64,000 nucleotides of DNA, taken from assembly GCA_043815185.1 (NCBI GenBank), contig JBDRJF010000024.1, forward strand, positions 64,533 to 128,532, written 5' to 3'. The DNA is from Candidatus Omnitrophota bacterium. GTDB lineage: Bacteria > Omnitrophota > Gorgyraeia > Duberdicusellales > 4484-171. Of this stretch, positions 3,060 through 48,537 are shown one piece after another; the first letter of the stretch is position 1; each line of letters starts with the position of its first letter. Under the pieces are notes generated by a model that was not told where the DNA came from, did no database searches, and saw nothing but the letters and a program-made list of their open reading frames with translations. A program made the position numbers and the translations under genes.

Positions 3060-3623
3060 TTACATTTTATAAAGTTCATGTTGTTGGATATACTTAGCGA
3101 CATTTTCAGTAACCAAATGCCTTATAGAACAGCCGTTTTTTACTAATTCCCGTATTTGAGATGAAGATGCTTCTATCTGCCGAATATTTACCGTATGGTA
3201 AAACTCATTGTCATCCAAAGGGTATTCCCTGCGTTTCCCAACTACTATTTTGACTTCTTTTTTTAAATCTTGATAATTCCTCCAAGTGGATAATGTCTCT
3301 GTTAAATCTGAACCGACAATGAGATAAAATTCATCTTCGGGAAATTTCTTTTTTAATTCCCGGATAGTATCAATAGTAAAAGAGACGCCTTCTCTTTTTA
3401 TCTCTAAATCCAAAACTTCAAATTTCTTATTGCCAAAAGTTGCTAATTTTGCCATTTCGAGCCGCAGTTTCGCATCAGCTTCTAAAGCCTCTTTATAGGG
3501 AGAGATATTGGTGGGAATAAAAAAAACTTTATCCAAGCTCAGTATCTCTGAAATGTCTTGAGCTAAGGTTAAATGCCCGATATGCGGAGGATTAAATGCT
3601 CCTCCCAATACGCCTATCTTCAT
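3060..3623 (-). CDS. nadD: nicotinate-nucleotide adenylyltransferase
   Basis: 187 aa with the N-terminal GGAFNPPHIGH nucleotidyltransferase motif. Confidence 0.9.
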   Translation of the reverse strand: MKIGVLGGAFNPPHIGHLTLAQDISEILSLDKVFFIPTNISPYKEALEADAKLRLEMAKLATFGNKKFEVLDLEIKREGVSFTIDTIRELKKKFPEDEFYLIVGSDLTETLSTWRNYQDLKKEVKIVVGKRREYPLDDNEFYHTVNIRQIEASSSQIRELVKNGCSIRHLVTENVAKYIQQHELYKM

Positions 3624-3628
3624 CTTTT

Positions 3629-4879
3629 TTATGTTCTTACCTGCCCGTTTCCTTTAGCTATATACTTATAAGTAGTTAGCTCTTCTAAACCCATAGGGCC
3701 TCGGGCATGCAGTTTGTCAGTAGAAATACCTATCTCTGCCCCTAATCCAAATTGGTAACCGTCACTAAAGCGAGTAGAGATATTTATGAAGCAGCAAGCA
3801 GAATCTACTTCTTTTACGAATTTACTAGCATTCTTAAAATTCTTAGTGAGAATACTCTCAGTATGCCTTGAGCCGTAAGTGTTAATATGTTTGATTGCCT
3901 CACCAACATTCTTGACTATCTTAATCGAAACAATCAGATCTAAATACTCTTTAGACCAATCAGCAGCGCTTGCTTTAGCCACTCCCGGTAGTATTTTCCT
4001 GCTTTGCTTATCAGCCCTTATCATAACTCCTAAGGAATCAAATTTCTTCTTCAAAACAGGCAAGAAACTCCTGGCAACCCCCTTATGGACAAGGATTGTC
4101 TCTACGGCATTACAAACCGAAGGCCTTTGAACCTTAGCATTAACGCATATTGTTAAAGCTTTTTTAAAATCAACTTGGCCATCGACGAATATATGGCAGA
4201 CTCCTTTATAGTGCTTTATCACCGGAATCTGCGAGATCTTAACTACTTTTCGTATCAAAGCCTCTCCGCCCCGGGGAATAACTAAATCAATGTATTTATC
4301 CTGTATCAAAAGTTCATCTACTATTTTGCGATCGACTCTATCAACTACGAAAAATACCGGAAAGTTAATGCCGTTCTTTCGGCAAGCTGTGGTTAACACC
4401 TTAGCGATAGCTTTATTAGAATTTATAGCATCCCCCCCGCCTCTTAGTATCCCTATATTCGAAGTTTTAAATAATAAGCCCACACAGTCGCTGGTAACAT
4501 TCGGCCTTGCTTCGTAAACAATCAATACCACCCCTATCGGGACTCTGACTCTCTGGACTGTTATTCCATTAGGCCTTTTGTTAGTTGATATAATTTGTCC
4601 GACCGGATCAGCTAAATTCGCTACTGTCATCAGAGAGGTACTCATCTCTTTAAGGCGCTTATCGTTTAGAGTTAATCTGTCGATAAAGCTTAAATTTAAG
4701 TTCTTCTTCCTGGCCAAAGCAATATCTTTTTTATTGGCCTGGATAATAACTCCTTTATTTTTTATCAAGGCCCGGGCCATATTTTGAAGAGCCCTGTTTT
4801 TCTGAGCAGTAGTTAGGTTGGCTAACTTATAGCTAGAGTCCTTGGCGTCTTTTACTAATTTTTTGACGTAGTTACTCAT
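3629..4879 (-). CDS. proA: gamma-glutamyl phosphate reductase
   Basis: 416 aa aldehyde-dehydrogenase-fold protein directly downstream of proB, with a ProA-typical sequence pattern throughout. Confidence 0.9.
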   Translation of the reverse strand: MSNYVKKLVKDAKDSSYKLANLTTAQKNRALQNMARALIKNKGVIIQANKKDIALARKKNLNLSFIDRLTLNDKRLKEMSTSLMTVANLADPVGQIISTNKRPNGITVQRVRVPIGVVLIVYEARPNVTSDCVGLLFKTSNIGILRGGGDAINSNKAIAKVLTTACRKNGINFPVFFVVDRVDRKIVDELLIQDKYIDLVIPRGGEALIRKVVKISQIPVIKHYKGVCHIFVDGQVDFKKALTICVNAKVQRPSVCNAVETILVHKGVARSFLPVLKKKFDSLGVMIRADKQSRKILPGVAKASAADWSKEYLDLIVSIKIVKNVGEAIKHINTYGSRHTESILTKNFKNASKFVKEVDSACCFINISTRFSDGYQFGLGAEIGISTDKLHARGPMGLEELTTYKYIAKGNGQVRT

Positions 4880-12676: not shown

Positions 12677-12699
12677 GCCTATTTATTCTCTGGATTTTA

Positions 12700-12856
12700 G
12701 GGGACGGTTCTCGTTGCTCTATCCTTTACTCGCACAACAAGTTATAAACGCAGTATTATAAGTCTTTTTAATTAAGGAAATAAGGCATAAGGGATAATAA
12801 TTGTCTGTTCATAATTAATTGGTGTGTAAGGGGTTACAGGCAAGAGAACCGTCCCC
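12700..12856. mobile_element. MITE-like element, repeat family R1 copy 1 (intact)
   Basis: 157 bp with no ORF. 13-bp perfect terminal inverted repeats GGGGACGGTTCTC / GAGAACCGTCCCC (17 of 18 if extended). Flanked by a direct TTA on both sides (12697..12699 and 12857..12859). Confidence 0.7.
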
Positions 12857-12990
12857 TTAAACATCATTAAGACCTTAGCCAATAAATAATTTCAGACTAA
12901 GAATTTGAATCGAATCGGGATACATCCTATTTGAATTTCTCTTACCAGGCTTAGCTTTTTTAAGTGGGATGTGTCCTGAAATAACTGATT

Positions 12991-25103: not shown

Positions 25104-25117
25104 TTTATTATGTTTTA

Positions 25118-25240
25118 GGGGGACGGTTCTCACTGCACTATCCTTTACCGACACAATAAGTTATAATCACACCATTATAAATTTCTAATTTAATTGAAAG
25201 AAAAATCCTTCTTTTTACGTCTATTATAGTAGAGAAAGGA
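25118..25240. repeat. repeat family R1 copy 2 (left end plus conserved body; right TIR not found)
   Basis: Begins with TTA then (G)GGGGACGGTTCTC as in copy 1. About 110 nt are near-identical by eye to copy 3 (CTATCCTTTAC... CATTATAAAT... CTAATTTAATTGAAAGAAAAA... CTTTTTACGTCTATTATA). Confidence 0.65.
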
Positions 25241-27779: not shown

Positions 27780-27957
27780 CCTCCTCAATGAGACTTACGT
27801 TTTCTAAAAGAAAACGTGTAGCCGAATTGACTCCGACGAGCGTTGTAAAATTATGGAACACCCTCTGGAATTTTTTATAAAAAATTCCGAGGACCAAGTC
27901 CCGGGAATTTTGTGAATTCCTCGGGGGAATTTTACAACATCTTCTGCGAGCCGGAGT
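27780..27957 (-). repeat. structured intercistronic element, repeat family R2 copy A
   Basis: Helices: ACTCCG/CGGAGT (27830..35 with 27952..57); GTTGTAAAATT/AATTTTACAAC (27842..52 with 27928..38); hairpins at 27862..27892, 27900..27925 and 27797..27817. Ends in CCTCCTCAATGA, the complement of the downstream SD. Confidence 0.7.
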
Positions 27958-38893: not shown

Positions 38894-40129
38894 CTATTCT
38901 TTCTCAATAGCCAAAACAACATTTATCCCGCCCCGCCCTCTGGCAATAATCAAAGCTTTGGTAATTTCTTTCTCTTTCAGTTTATTGGGAGTATAGTCTA
39001 AATCACAATAAAGGTCTCTCATCTCCTGGTTAATCGTCGGCAGAACGATTGAGTATTTCATTGAAAAAAGTGTAACAATTAAATCTAAAGCGCTCTGGGC
39101 CCCGAGAAGATTTCCGTACATGCTCTTAGGCGCACTGAGAACAATTTTGTTTATTTGCTTCCCAAATACATTTTTTAAAGCTGATGTTTCAAGATAATCC
39201 CCGATTACAGTTGCCTCACCATCTAAACAGATATAATCTATGTCTGGCTTATTCCAAGAAGCATCCTTTAGGCATTCCTCTATTGCGTATTCTAACTCCT
39301 CTGATTTAGGACTGTATCTTGAATAGTGTTGTCCGTCGGAAGAGAAACCAATTCCTTTTATAAATCCATAAATCGGCACACCTCTTTTTTTGGCCTTAGA
39401 TTCTTTCTCCAAAATAACTACTCCTGAGCCCTCGCCTAAAACAAAACCATCCCGGTTTAAATCATAAGGTTTGTATGCTGTTTTAGGATTAAGATTATTT
39501 TTTGATAAACTACCGCAAGTATTTGCACTCAATAGAGCATAAGGAGTAATCGGGGCTTCCATGCCTCCGGCTAATACGAAATCATTTTTATCCTGAGCTA
39601 TTATTTTAGAACCATACCATAAACTCAAGGCTGAAGAAGCCTTATCGGCAACAATAGTTTTGCTATAACCTTTGAAGCCGTAATATATAGTAATTTGGCC
39701 CTGGGGAGCTGCCGGAAACCAGGCTGAAGCCATATAAGGGGAAATACCTTCTCTTCCCTCTAGATACATATCTCTTAGCTCAGTCTCAGCAAAGAGCCAG
39801 CCGCCAATAGCATTGCCCATAAATACGCCGACTCGATCTTTATCGATTTTTTCCAAATCCATTCCGGCATCTTCTATGGCTTGTTCTGAGGCAACTAGAG
39901 CCATATGAGAAAACACATCTATTTTCTTAACTAACCTTCCTGAAACATGTGAGTAGTGATCAAGCTCATGGACTTGGCCGGCAATCCGAGAAGGATAAAG
40001 GCTAGCGTCAAACCTCTTGATTTCATCGACAAAAGATGCGCATTTTTTAAGGTTAGCCCAAAAGGTTTCTTTTTTTAATCCACAAGGTGAAACTACGCCG
40101 ACACCGGTTATTGCAACTCTCGGCCCCAT
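38894..40129 (-). CDS. ketosynthase beta / chain-length-factor-like (no active-site Cys)
   Basis: 411 aa, colinear with the adjacent KS, but with Lys at the Cys column (IVADKASSALS) and Asp at the second His column (ICLDGEAT). Confidence 0.75.
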   Translation of the reverse strand: MGPRVAITGVGVVSPCGLKKETFWANLKKCASFVDEIKRFDASLYPSRIAGQVHELDHYSHVSGRLVKKIDVFSHMALVASEQAIEDAGMDLEKIDKDRVGVFMGNAIGGWLFAETELRDMYLEGREGISPYMASAWFPAAPQGQITIYYGFKGYSKTIVADKASSALSLWYGSKIIAQDKNDFVLAGGMEAPITPYALLSANTCGSLSKNNLNPKTAYKPYDLNRDGFVLGEGSGVVILEKESKAKKRGVPIYGFIKGIGFSSDGQHYSRYSPKSEELEYAIEECLKDASWNKPDIDYICLDGEATVIGDYLETSALKNVFGKQINKIVLSAPKSMYGNLLGAQSALDLIVTLFSMKYSIVLPTINQEMRDLYCDLDYTPNKLKEKEITKALIIARGRGGINVVLAIEKE

Positions 40130-40132
40130 TAA

Positions 40133-41380
40133 TTACCTCCACTTCTTAAATACAATCGAAGAATGGATTCCCGAAAATCCACTGCTGGTCTTAAGTATAT
40201 ACTCCGGCATTAATTTCCTCTTTTTATTGGGAATATAATCTAAATCACACTTAGGATCAGGCTCTTCCTGGTTAATCGTCGGTGGAAGATATCCTTTTTC
40301 AAAAATCATACAACATAATACACTCTCTACAGCATTAGCAGCAGCTAAAGGATGGCCGATCATCGATTTAATCGAGCTTATCGGCACCTTATAAGCAAAA
40401 TCTCCTAAAACTTTTTTGTAAGCGTCAGTTTCAAAGACATCATTCTGCCGGGTCGATGAGCCGTGAGCATTTATATAACCAATATCCTCATTCTTTATCC
40501 CTGAATTCTTTATTGCTTCCCGTATAGAACGAGCCATCGGTTCACCGTCTTCAGGCAAATCAGTCATATGATAGGCATTACAACTTGTCCCATAACCAAG
40601 AATTTCAGCATAAATATGGGAGCCTCTCTTCTTAGCATGTTCTAACTCTTCCAATATAAGGATTCCAGCTGCCTCACTAATAACAAAACCATTCCGCTTG
40701 TTATCAAAAGGACGGCTGGCCTTATGAGGTTCCTGGTTATTCTTGGCTAAAACGCTTACCACGTCAAAAGCTCCGAAGGTAATCGGGGTAACCGGAGCTT
40801 CATTGGCTCCGGCAATAATTAGGTCCTGCCTTCCTTCCTGAATAAGCTCATAAGCAAAACCTAAAGAATCAGTTCCGGCAGTGCAACCGGTTGAGACTGT
40901 ACAATTCATTCCCTTGGTCCCATAAATAGCCCCTACCTCTGCGCTGGGAGTATTAAACATAGCAGCATCATAAAGATAAGGCCTTCCCTTCCGGGGATCA
41001 ATCGGGCTCTTACCCCAATCAGTGACTAATAAAAATTCTTCTTCCATAAAACGGGTCCCGCAAATAGCATTGGCTAAGATTACACCACATCTGCGGCGGT
41101 CCAACTTATTAAAATCTAATTTTGCATCTTCCACCGCTCCCTTAGCAGCGGCAATCCCGAATTGAACATACCGATCCATACGTTTATGGTCAGTTATACC
41201 AAACTTTAAAGGGTCGAAATTCAAATCTTGGGAAGCAATCTTTGAAAGGAATAAACTTACATCAAAGTTCTCAACCCTTTCAATACAAGATTTACCCTCA
41301 ATTAGATTGTTGTAAAATTCATTCTTATCTTCTCCGGCTGCGCAGATAACTCCAATTCCAGTAATCACCACTCTCTTCAC
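40133..41380 (-). CDS. ketosynthase alpha, type II PKS-like
   Basis: 415 aa with a GTG start after a GAGGAGG SD. Motifs VSTGCTAGTDS (Cys), CNAYHMT and INAHGSSTRQNDVFET (His/His). Confidence 0.8.
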   Translation of the reverse strand: MKRVVITGIGVICAAGEDKNEFYNNLIEGKSCIERVENFDVSLFLSKIASQDLNFDPLKFGITDHKRMDRYVQFGIAAAKGAVEDAKLDFNKLDRRRCGVILANAICGTRFMEEEFLLVTDWGKSPIDPRKGRPYLYDAAMFNTPSAEVGAIYGTKGMNCTVSTGCTAGTDSLGFAYELIQEGRQDLIIAGANEAPVTPITFGAFDVVSVLAKNNQEPHKASRPFDNKRNGFVISEAAGILILEELEHAKKRGSHIYAEILGYGTSCNAYHMTDLPEDGEPMARSIREAIKNSGIKNEDIGYINAHGSSTRQNDVFETDAYKKVLGDFAYKVPISSIKSMIGHPLAAANAVESVLCCMIFEKGYLPPTINQEEPDPKCDLDYIPNKKRKLMPEYILKTSSGFSGIHSSIVFKKWR

Positions 41381-41388
41381 TTCTCTTT

Positions 41389-41556
41389 CCTCCTCAATGA
41401 TCCGCCTTAGGCGGAGAATTGATCCCGACGAGCGTTACAAAATTGTCGAAGAGAATTTTGTAACATCTTCTGCCCTCTGGAATTTTCCACTGGAAAATTC
41501 CGAGGACTCAGTCCCTGAAATTTCAGCATGTGAAATTTCTAGGGGCGAGTCGGGAT
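41389..41556 (-). repeat. structured intercistronic element, repeat family R2 copy B
   Basis: Outer stem ATCCCGAC/GTCGGGAT (41422..29 with 41549..56) enclosing hairpins at 41434..41464, 41474..41505 and 41513..41544, plus a hairpin at 41401..41415 and CCTCCTCAATGA (41389..41400). Confidence 0.7.
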
Positions 41557-41562
41557 ATATTA

Positions 41563-42168
41563 TTAATCTTTCCTAGCAACTTTAAATACAATGTTCCCGC
41601 CATCCGGGCAGGTTACCGTATCTATAGAATTCTGATTATCCATAAACTGAAATTTTGCTCCAAAATTTAGGGCAAAGAGGGCTGGGAAAGCTGTGTGCCA
41701 GGCTGCTCCGCAGAATCCAGGAATACACTTAAGGCCTTCAATATCCCATTTATCACCAACCTGATACTTATAAAAACACTTAGGCGAAGCCATCCCTTTA
41801 GGGGTACCCTTAGCTTTAATAACCTCAATAACCATCCTCTTGGGGTTCGGGCCCTTATAGTTATGATCTTTAGGAATATTATCGATCTCACCCTGCTTAT
41901 TAAAAATTTCGGCCTTAAACTCTAGTTTCCCGCCATCGGGACAAGTTACTAACAATGACCTTTGATTATCCATAAAAGGGAATTTTGCTCCAAAACTTAA
42001 AGCGTAAATTACCGGAAATAAAGCATGGGCCAGGCCTAAGCAAAAGTGCTTGGGCGGATGGGTAAAATCCTCTAAAATTAATTCATCACCGGCCTTATAG
42101 CCATGGTAACAATCTCCATAAACATTAAGCACTGTTAATTTTAATTTTGGGAAAGGTGTTTTAACCAT
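41563..42168 (-). CDS. tandem-duplicated TIGR04076-like protein
   Basis: 201 aa. The two halves share FC..A....FP...AL.FGAKF.FMDNQ......TCPDGG...FK. The family call is from memory of the CPDG-containing TIGR04076 pattern. Confidence 0.5.
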   Translation of the reverse strand: MVKTPFPKLKLTVLNVYGDCYHGYKAGDELILEDFTHPPKHFCLGLAHALFPVIYALSFGAKFPFMDNQRSLLVTCPDGGKLEFKAEIFNKQGEIDNIPKDHNYKGPNPKRMVIEVIKAKGTPKGMASPKCFYKYQVGDKWDIEGLKCIPGFCGAAWHTAFPALFALNFGAKFQFMDNQNSIDTVTCPDGGNIVFKVARKD

Positions 42169-47547: not shown

Positions 47548-47587
47548 TACGCGGTGCAGATAAAAGAATTACTCTACCCACCGCGTA
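47548..47587. repeat. 9-bp hairpin abutting R1 copy 3
   Basis: TACGCGGTG, 22-nt loop, CACCGCGTA. It holds the same position relative to the R1 left end as the hairpin at 25066..25103. Confidence 0.5.
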
Positions 47588-47592
47588 TCTCA

Positions 47593-47735
47593 GGGGACGG
47601 TTCTCGTTACCCTATCCTTTACCCGCACAACAAGCTGTAAACACACCATTATAAATATCTAATTTAATTGAAAGAAAAAACTTTCTTTTTACGTCTATTA
47701 TAATAAGAGAGGTAAAAAAGAGGAGGGGCGTCCCC
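47593..47735. mobile_element. repeat family R1 copy 3 (left TIR intact, right TIR reduced to CGTCCCC)
   Basis: Starts GGGGACGGTTCTC and ends ...GGGGCGTCCCC. Flanks are TCA and TAA (both TNA). The body is near-identical by eye to copy 2. Confidence 0.65.
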
Positions 47736-47773
47736 TAAGATAGATTTTGGGTGTTAGAACGATAAAATATAAT

Positions 47774-47802
47774 TTGACTTAGCTAGATTTATGGTATATA
47801 TT
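47774..47802 (+). promoter_or_regulatory. promoter of the NYN gene
   Basis: TTGACT (47774..47779), 17 nt, TATATT (47797..47802). An alternative TGgTATATA extended -10 is also present. The spelling around -35/-10 resembles the phd promoter. Confidence 0.5.
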
Positions 47803-47825
47803 TTAGGTAGAAATGAAACTACTAC

Positions 47826-47868
47826 CCTTGGGTTTCGACCCAAGGTGCGGGGCTGCCTTAGGCAGCCC
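47826..47868 (+). promoter_or_regulatory. two GC-rich hairpins in the NYN 5' leader
   Basis: CCTTGGGT-TTCG-ACCCAAGG (47826..47845) and GGGCTGCC-TTA-GGCAGCCC (47850..47868). Only a weak AGG precedes the ATG. Confidence 0.6.
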
Positions 47869-47885
47869 TCGCTTATTTATAGGCA

Positions 47886-48509
47886 ATGAAAAGAACTTAC
47901 GTTTACATTGACGGGTTTAATTTATACTACCGCGCTATTAAAAATACCCCTTATAAATGGCTTGATTTAAAAGTTCTTTGCCAAAAGCTTCTTACTAAAG
48001 ATCATAGAATTGATGCACTTAAATATTTTACTGCAATCGTATCGGGTAAAAAAGACTCCCAAAAACCTATCCGACAACAGACTTATATTAGAGCGCTTGA
48101 GAAATATAACCCAGAAGTATCTGTATACTACGGCCAATTTCGTAGCCATAGGCAAAAAGCACTTCTTGCTTACCCAACTAAAAAAAAGAAATTTGAATAC
48201 ATCATTAAAACGGAAGAGAAAGGTTCTGATGTCAATCTTGCTGTACATCTTTTAAATGATGGCTGGCTTAATAAATATGACTGTGCGGTGCTAATTTCAA
48301 ATGATAGCGACCTTGCAGAGGCAATAAATCTTGTTAAAAAAGAACATAGCAAGTTAATAGGTTTGCTTCTACCTACGAATTGTTACCCGTCAAAAGAATT
48401 AATGCCTTTGGTTGATTTTGTTAAAACTATAAGAAAAGGTGTGCTGGCGATATCACAGTTGCCAAATTTGATACCAGGAACAAAAATACATAAGCCAATA
48501 ACATGGTAA
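47886..48509 (+). CDS. NYN (LabA/PIN-like) domain protein, predicted ribonuclease
   Basis: 207 aa with acidic motifs YIDGFNLYY, EKGSDVNLA and SNDSDL in the NYN order. Confidence 0.75.
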   Translation: MKRTYVYIDGFNLYYRAIKNTPYKWLDLKVLCQKLLTKDHRIDALKYFTAIVSGKKDSQKPIRQQTYIRALEKYNPEVSVYYGQFRSHRQKALLAYPTKKKKFEYIIKTEEKGSDVNLAVHLLNDGWLNKYDCAVLISNDSDLAEAINLVKKEHSKLIGLLLPTNCYPSKELMPLVDFVKTIRKGVLAISQLPNLIPGTKIHKPITW

Positions 48510-48537
48510 AGTTTTTTGGTTGAGAATAAACTTTACC
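48505..48537. terminator. bidirectional hairpin between the convergent NYN and era genes
   Basis: Perfect 10-bp stem GGTAAAGTTT / AAACTTTACC with a 13-nt loop. AT-rich, so probably weak. Confidence 0.45.

Follow-up and report, generated by a model that had tools for sequence, protein, structure and literature searches.

What does a solitary nuclease gene do that is read against all of its neighbours and begins directly behind a leader with two GC-rich hairpins? The question arises at one locus in a 64,000 nucleotide stretch of Candidatus Omnitrophota bacterium (contig JBDRJF010000024.1), called the window below. An earlier note on this DNA described a NYN/PIN-like protein of 207 amino acids and proposed an acquired ribonuclease, either a solitary toxin or defence effector or an RNA-processing factor, with translation or stability gated by the leader hairpins. 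We find that the hairpins are not a simple gate on the mRNA and that the nuclease is not solitary: they belong to a conserved structured RNA with its own terminator, which co-occurs with the NYN family across phyla and is sometimes inverted relative to the gene, downstream of it or, in plasmid relatives, tandemly repeated. Judged from sequence comparison, the locus may be a type III-like toxin-antitoxin (TA) module of an RNA antitoxin and a NYN toxin, to which we assign a probability of about one half.

The features of the locus are listed in Table 1. Four promoter-like sites were observed in the region where 4.0 are expected, so the match to TTGACT-17-TATATT taken by itself is at chance level. 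The promoter proposed earlier is borne out by the relatives: the same boxes are found at the equal position in the homologous loci L001 and L312, and a -35/-10 signal is present family-wide. The leader is about 75 nt long and its fold is stable, with -38.6 kcal/mol for positions 47805-47900 (z = -4.7, none of 200 shuffles as good). Of the two hairpins, both described before as 8-bp stems, the first (HP1) has the 8 bp and the UUCG loop, and the second (HP2) is instead an 11-bp stem with a bulged U. They are separated by the single U at 47846. HP2 is called as an intrinsic terminator by the terminator scan (47849-47869 plus the tail CGCTTATTTA). Only an AGG ending 2 nt 5' of the ATG could serve as ribosome-binding site, which agrees with the view that this site is weak or absent.

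Table 1. Features of the NYN locus, numbered from the first letter of the window.
Feature	Position	Strand	Basis
Whole module: promoter, small RNA and NYN open reading frame	47764..48510	+	homology block common to copies in unrelated contexts (blastn)
Sigma-70-like promoter TTGACT-17-TATATT	47774..47802	+	10 of 12 positions match
Single-stranded ACUAC directly 5' of HP1	47821..47825	+	family position table and alignment
HP1, 8-bp hairpin CCUUGGGU-UUCG-ACCCAAGG	47826..47845	+	fold; first helix of the family
HP2, 11-bp GC-rich hairpin with bulged U 47869 and UUA loop, terminator stem	47847..47872	+	fold and terminator scan; helix 2 of the family structure
U-rich tail UUAUUUA, terminator tract; start codon 6 nt on	47873..47879	+	terminator scan
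NYN-domain nuclease gene, HEC-09 / LabA-like family, 207 amino acids	47886..48509	+	Pfam, PADLOC, phrog, AlphaFold2
Weak inverted repeat, A/U-rich, between the stop codons of NYN and era, which converge	48505..48537	.	fold, not significant

To follow the hairpins through the family, genome loci were searched with an nhmmer profile, followed by a covariance model (R1) for which 57 sequences were used. The model found 83 copies of the motif in the genome set, the window included, and these copies are the basis of the family counts given here. Among 80 species genomes from many phyla (loci L006-L085, with the 5'-truncated L039 left out of the linkage claim) the two-hairpin RNA stands beside NYN at every flanked locus. 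In 75 genome loci the adjacent RNA was found by nhmmer and the covariance model, and the loci that the model missed or scored poorly hold a variant RNA with a GUG loop and a CUCAAAGG linker. The hairpins are therefore present in the orthologues. Within the window itself the covariance model, run with filters off, found no second copy upstream of another gene, a check proposed in the earlier note; the next best match scored 12 bits.

The two helices are conserved as structures. In the model-fitted alignment 93.6% of the cells are paired, and 335 cells are changed on both sides compared to 94 ± 11 in shuffles. The covariation score reaches 0.59 there, and slid partners give no more than 0.165. 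Compensatory changes were also found at 14 of the 16 predicted pairs in an alignment made by MAFFT only, and the copy in L001 is an individual case, with an HP1 identical to that of the window and an HP2 with compensatory changes. Changes on both sides occur at eight of nine pairs of the HP1 family helix, which keeps the UUCG loop in 60 of 83 copies, and at ten of eleven pairs of the HP2 helix, in which 97.6% of the cells are paired and the bulged U is kept in 67 of 83 copies. G·U pairs are far more frequent in the helices than A·C pairs (118 versus 22), so selection acts on them as RNA read from this strand.

Conservation at the sequence level is strong where the helices meet. C-rich and G-rich bases are kept at the foot of HP1, the linker is one pyrimidine, and the foot of HP2 has a GC clamp with the bulged U, so that the junction reads CCC/GGG, single pyrimidine, GC...U-GC. 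The consensus 5' of HP1 is A-Y-Y-M-C; its A, at a distance of five nucleotides from HP1, is kept in 75 of 83 copies. In the repeats of E. coli plasmids ACAAC or AACCC takes the place of the ACUAC of the window. An AT-rich block resembling a -10 box is found at about -20 to -14 from HP1, ending 11-14 nt before it, and TTG at -42 to -40, about 22 nt further 5'. Downstream, at least five T follow within 9 nt of HP2 in 68 of 83 copies, and the distance from the end of HP2 to codon 1 of NYN is typically 13-18 nt. Rfam 15, at gathering and at permissive thresholds, gave no family on the window RNA, the GC-rich copy in L014 or the E. coli repeat array; the sub-threshold listings are mostly small RNA and leader families. 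As a structured RNA motif the two-hairpin RNA is well supported, and Rfam does not contain it.

Two other candidate elements were rejected. An out-of-frame ATG reading frame spans the hairpins in the window and might have been a leader peptide; it is absent in L001, and the substitutions keep the pairing and not the codons. A tRNA-like or attC-like element was sought by eye, and neither acceptor/T-arm geometry nor attC core sites were seen. The only tRNA reported by ARAGORN is a tRNA-Gln far from the leader.

How the RNA is placed relative to NYN bears on whether it is only a 5' untranslated region (UTR). In the genome set 72 of the 83 model hits lie upstream of NYN and co-directional with it. 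A metagenome scan by a strict RNA pattern gave 120 loci, 82 of them confirmed by the model. In 38 of these 82 the RNA is upstream and co-directional, in 12 convergent, in seven divergent and in two downstream; 13 have no NYN although at least 700 nt of downstream flank are present, and in ten the flank is too short to judge. About a third of the linked metagenome pairs thus have a divergent, convergent or downstream RNA gene. In three Acidobacteriota loci the RNA is divergent from NYN and has its own TATAAT box and terminator. It is inverted in L072 and divergent in L115, and in L068 and L129-131 it is convergent just past the NYN stop codon. The inverted and downstream genes therefore make the RNA a separate transcription unit and not just a 5' UTR.

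These placements also bear on a purely cis-acting leader, in which HP2 would be an attenuator and HP1 a protein-binding or stabilising element, the gene being controlled by conditional read-through or autoregulated through cleavage of the NYN 5' UTR by the nuclease, and inhibition of the protein by the RNA would play no part. Such a leader would explain why most copies are upstream and co-directional (including 38 of the 59 linked metagenome pairs) and why the terminator stands directly before the start codon; the NYN start lies so few nucleotides past HP2 that a promoter for NYN alone would not fit between them. However, the third of linked pairs in other orientations cannot be a 5' UTR, inspection by eye showed no conserved alternative antiterminator pairing, and the covariation is that of two stable helices. 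Tandem units in plasmid relatives would be unexpected for an attenuator, and RNA copies persist without a NYN gene. We therefore consider a cis-acting leader unlikely.

A protein partner was not found. All-against-all clustering of the open reading frames around 81 loci gave only NYN and antisense frames within NYN as conserved families. The earlier statement that the gene has no partner is thus right for proteins and wrong for RNA. Terminator, co-occurrence, inversion and tandem repetition together favour a partner RNA in its own right, of the kind known from type III TA systems.

The RNA and the gene are lost unequally. NYN without the RNA was never seen, and the reverse was seen in the 13 metagenome copies given above. 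Some metagenomic RNA copies without an intact NYN keep NYN stubs of 10-40 codons, and NYN genes cut off after 10-60 codons were found behind intact RNA copies. Among viral contigs the strict pattern gave 21 loci, only one of which has a full NYN gene; L091 retains the first 19 NYN codons and L103 the last 16. These viral orphan RNAs (L086-L105) score high, for example L103 at 2180-2251, L094 at 2322-2389 and L100 at 4083-4155. The orphan RNA of L094 sits just upstream of a phage portal gene, and no common neighbour was found for the other viral copies without NYN. Around the orphan copies as a whole no protein family recurs except integrase fragments in three loci. The excess of RNA-only over NYN-only loci fits the dependence of a toxin on its antitoxin, and the viral RNAs without NYN could be decay remnants or phage-borne antitoxin mimics.

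Duplications are also found at the RNA. Partial tandem duplications are present in L079 (RNA copies at 3138-3213, 3529-3603 and 3918-3992) and L085 (3934-4008 and 4679-4753), where a degenerate piece of the NYN 5' end stands behind every extra RNA copy. This suggests that recombination or insertion has recurred where the RNA adjoins the start of NYN. Tandem RNA copies occur in L074 (3818-3891 and 3929-4004) and L106 (3244-3311 and 3312-3384). Hairpins that act at the DNA level, as an attC- or attB-like recombination or integration site or a single-strand origin travelling with the gene, would account for these duplications, for the truncated NYN genes behind intact RNAs, for the integrase fragments near three orphans and for the sharp homology edges of the module. 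Against this, the strand-specific excess of G·U over A·C pairs indicates selection on RNA, a promoter at fixed distance upstream and a U-tract downstream accompany the hairpins, the R' and R'' cores of attC were not seen by eye, and no recombinase is consistently linked. A role as a DNA element is accordingly improbable.

The second component of the module is the NYN protein. The motifs YIDGFNLYY, EKGSDVNLA and SNDSDL are present in the product of the reading frame and, as described earlier, the gene is on the plus strand and all flanking genes are on the minus strand. The protein matches the Pfam NYN family (Pfam: PF01936) over residues 3-162 with an E-value of 8e-11 and 43 bits (cut-off 24.2), phrog_7929 with an E-value of 1e-57, and the PADLOC model of HEC-09 (PDLC04163) with an E-value of 3.4e-40, residues 1-207 aligning to positions 1-202 of 203. 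Scans of Pfam, PADLOC and NCBIfam returned NYN-type models only, two of them in PADLOC and none in NCBIfam. In an alignment with 21 homologues the residues D9, E111, D115, N139, D140 and D142 are invariant, and a C-terminal segment particular to this family (residues 160-207, ...SQLPNPIPGT.IHKP..W) is conserved. The AlphaFold2 model has a pLDDT of 89, and its top fold matches are the LabA-like structure 2QIP and the NYN domain of MARF1, with probability 1.0. Because the acidic metal-binding residues are invariant and the predicted PIN-like alpha/beta fold matches these structures, the active site looks intact. A sequence query of solved structures gave no close homologue, and the exact protein is absent from the contig index. 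Three close homologues (P0014, P0022 and P0027; 269-272 amino acids, 67-71% identity) have an additional C-terminal extension of about 62 amino acids, which is absent from the window protein.

LabA-like and MARF1 NYN proteins (PF01936; PDB 2QIP, 5YAA, 6FDL) share the fold and the acidic active-site residues with the window protein. The sequence identity is only about 14-16%, and the window family differs by its own C-terminal segment and its dedicated RNA, while LabA and MARF1 are cellular regulators without a known partner RNA gene. Regnase-1 (ZC3H12A), a eukaryotic PIN/NYN-like RNase, recognises short stem-loops in 3' UTRs and cuts the mRNA of its own gene. It lacks both a terminator and a separate RNA gene and is an analogy for hairpin recognition only.

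Compared to the type III systems ToxIN, CptIN and TenpIN, the window has the same order of promoter, non-coding RNA, intrinsic terminator and promoterless endoribonuclease gene, a protein antitoxin is likewise absent, and plasmids and mobile elements are a common location. The ToxI array reportedly consists of 5.5 repeats of 36 nt; relatives of NYN on E. coli plasmids carry a comparable array of 3.5 repeats of 33 nt. Differing from the known systems, HP2 of the partner RNA doubles as the terminator, and in some loci the RNA gene has the opposite orientation to the nuclease gene. Because the toxin family differs and the window RNA is not repeated, we do not file the module under ToxIN, CptIN or TenpIN and set it apart from them as a type III-like candidate.

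The plasmid relatives show how the RNA varies. On mobilisable plasmids of 4.6 kb from E. coli, for example NZ_CP145651, and from Salmonella, which contain mobilisation genes, one hypothetical gene and a NYN gene (42% identity), the order is promoter, 3.5 tandem 33-nt HP1-like hairpin repeats, a separate strong terminator, a Shine-Dalgarno sequence and the NYN ATG. An E. coli plasmid of 3.4 kb has two units, ACUAC-hairpin and then ACAAC-hairpin-terminator. ColE1 plasmids of Klebsiella and E. albertii carry two to three units of a different RNA class, and plasmids of Xanthomonas and Pseudomonas and large plasmids of Klebsiella one unit and a terminator. The tandem repetition of type III systems is partly present in L303 and L304. 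Relatives in viral contigs (28-34% identity) have a hairpin with C-rich flanks, a terminator and then the gene. As each NYN subfamily keeps its own RNA, the two look like a cognate pair that has co-diversified.

If the locus is a type III-like module, one promoter would drive a small structured RNA of roughly 60-75 nt, made up of a short 5' tail with ACUAC, HP1 with its UUCG loop, one pyrimidine, HP2 with the bulged U and a U-tract. Most transcripts would stop at HP2 and the NYN frame would be present only on read-through transcripts, so that the terminator would create a large excess of the RNA over the nuclease mRNA. The RNA would bind its cognate NYN ribonuclease and keep it inactive, and may be processed by NYN near ACUAC, a putative processing or recognition site. 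When the RNA supply is lost, by plasmid loss or phage-induced shut-off of transcription, NYN would be freed and would cleave cellular or phage RNA, with addiction or abortive infection as the outcome. NYN toxicity, its neutralisation by the RNA, the processing and the trigger are the steps that we infer.

The idea of a toxin or defence function fits the full-length match to HEC-09, a PADLOC candidate consisting of one NYN protein, for which an RNA component is not described (Payne et al., bioRxiv 10.1101/2024.01.29.577857). HEC-09 and the window protein belong to the same family, and HEC-09 is likewise a single NYN protein that resembles the NYN domain of MARF1 and is found in defence or mobile contexts. 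The window module differs in having a conserved partner RNA and in its position among housekeeping genes instead of in an Hma system. A literature search found no report of an RNA partner for NYN or HEC-09.

Several observations weigh against an RNA antitoxin. In its single published test, HEC-09 was cloned with its native upstream region and gave no protection against the phages tried (10.1101/2024.01.29.577857). The window and most relatives have a single two-hairpin unit without the tandem repeats of type III systems, and the NYN/PIN-like fold is unrelated to ToxN/AbiQ, CptN and TenpN. The excess of RNA-only loci is explicable by target size, since the RNA has about 70 nt and the gene about 620 nt, a tenfold difference that could produce it. 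A terminator before a gene is equally typical of a cis-acting attenuator. Finally, an RNA cofactor would predict an equally tight linkage.

This last point leads to the possibility that the RNA assists the nuclease, as a cofactor, scaffold or sensor on which NYN depends for its activity or for target recognition. The linkage is universal in all arrangements, the sequence of the helix junction is strongly conserved, and toxicity of the HEC-09 construct is not reported (10.1101/2024.01.29.577857), all of which would suit such a partner. However, the RNA has no variable guide-like segment and all variation is compensatory within the stems, the RNA excess enforced by the terminator and the tandem repeats are hallmarks of an antitoxin, and RNA alone in phage contigs suits an inhibitor better than an activator. 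We regard a positive role as rather doubtful, and an RNA antitoxin remains our preferred reading.

The NYN family is large and mobile. Scoring of 8,000 candidates gave at least 7,968 clusters at 90% identity; at 50% identity, 371 clusters reach an E-value ≤ 1e-30. The family is present in at least 577 species genomes; matches were found in 447 plasmid records and a relative in 75 viral contigs. It occurs on small plasmids, conjugative elements and prophages, next to relaxases, integrases, transposases, Hma-like genes and other toxin-antitoxin genes. At least one relative (L053) lies beside genes named by eye as an Hma-like helicase and a methylase; in the window NYN is neither embedded in nor beside an Hma, BREX or restriction-modification defence system. 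Protein identities of 60-78% among Omnitrophota, Ignavibacteria, Syntrophales and one metagenome-assembled genome of Bathyarchaeia, thus across phyla and including an archaeon, imply horizontal transfer.

The module moves as one piece. DNA homology to distant copies (blastn: 47764-48510 with 77% to L312/L313, 47772-48509 with 74% to L001) ends at 47764/47772 and 48509/48510, which is exactly promoter, RNA and reading frame (about 745 bp). In the window NYN is flanked by a nitroreductase-like gene and by era, which is convergent. The era junction is common only to sister strains of 91% identity (L309-L311), which diverge upstream of 47760, and homologues at 77-78% protein identity (74-77% nucleotide identity) adjoin transposase or folate genes. 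Since homologues lie in differing contexts, a core or syntenic gene is ruled out, and the earlier proposal of an acquired accessory nuclease holds. The composition gives no sign of acquisition, with a GC content of 0.35-0.37 in the module and 0.35-0.44 in the flanks. In the sister strain L309 a reading frame of 435 amino acids with HTH_29/HTH_32 (92-1399), which looks transposase-like, lies upstream of the module in place of the R1 repeat element and the nitroreductase-like gene.

The neighbourhood also speaks to a housekeeping nuclease, which would act beside era in rRNA or tRNA maturation and whose structured 5' UTR would be incidental. In the window and the sister strains NYN converges on era, whose product is a GTPase of ribosome assembly, and a part in tRNA or rRNA processing has been proposed speculatively for bacterial NYN proteins in earlier literature. 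Against it, the era adjacency does not extend to the more distant homologues, the family is found on mobile elements, and its cross-phylum identity implies horizontal transfer. This makes a housekeeping role very improbable. At the era stop codon the shared hairpin of the earlier note exists as a 9-bp stem, present in the centroid structure only; it is weak (z = -1.9, with 7 of 200 shuffles folding equally well) and was not called by the terminator scan. This inverted repeat may be a bidirectional terminator.

Some members of the family are probably misnamed. The plasmid hits H34, H39, H63 and H69 are called 6-hydroxy-3-succinoylpyridine 3-monooxygenase HspA/NicB in GenBank, a name that comes from a Pseudomonas putida S16 protein. 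A survey of the PIN superfamily, which describes the bacterial PF01936 proteins as functionally unstudied, assigns that activity, if real, to another domain. The monooxygenase name is probably an annotation artefact that has been propagated.

Besides the NYN module, the window contains further repeats. The R1 element upstream of NYN, which shares only its label with the covariance model, is a real repeat, as claimed before, with minus-strand copies at 47587-47705, 25113-25231 and 12694-12761, an inverted partial copy at 12832-12861 and a weak one at 1551-1618. On the minus strand a TTATAAT box precedes about 60 nt of conserved sequence (…CTTGTTGTGCGGGTAAAGGATAGnGyAACGAGAACCGTCCCC), and in three cases the next minus-strand reading frame begins about 120-140 nt past the repeat. 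A stem-loop is predicted, three copies being too few for covariation, and there is no Rfam match. Since the homology shared with other NYN loci begins at 47764, R1 lies outside the NYN module. A 25-nt inverted pair, CCCTAAAGGGATGGCTGCGCCTAAG, is found at 2930-2954 and 41779-41803, 38.8 kb apart and 96% complementary. Direct repeats of 77-89% identity (27824-27910 and 41416-41523; 41582-41669 and 41915-41999; 38981-39045 and 40223-40287) look like paralogous gene segments.

We consider it possible, at somewhat less than even odds, that the modules form a new and very widespread type III-like TA or abortive-infection family, and that phages which carry the RNA alone use it as an antitoxin mimic against NYN. 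If the toxin-antitoxin reading is true, this would be a fourth type III TA family, with an unrelated toxin fold and a far wider spread than the three known ones. The RNA would be the missing component of the PADLOC candidate HEC-09 and could be varied alongside the nuclease. For a large, uncharacterised branch of bacterial NYN/LabA-like proteins this reading would supply a function that can be tested, and it may explain why the tiny ColE1-type plasmids of E. coli, Salmonella and Klebsiella have no annotated cargo of a known type other than NYN.

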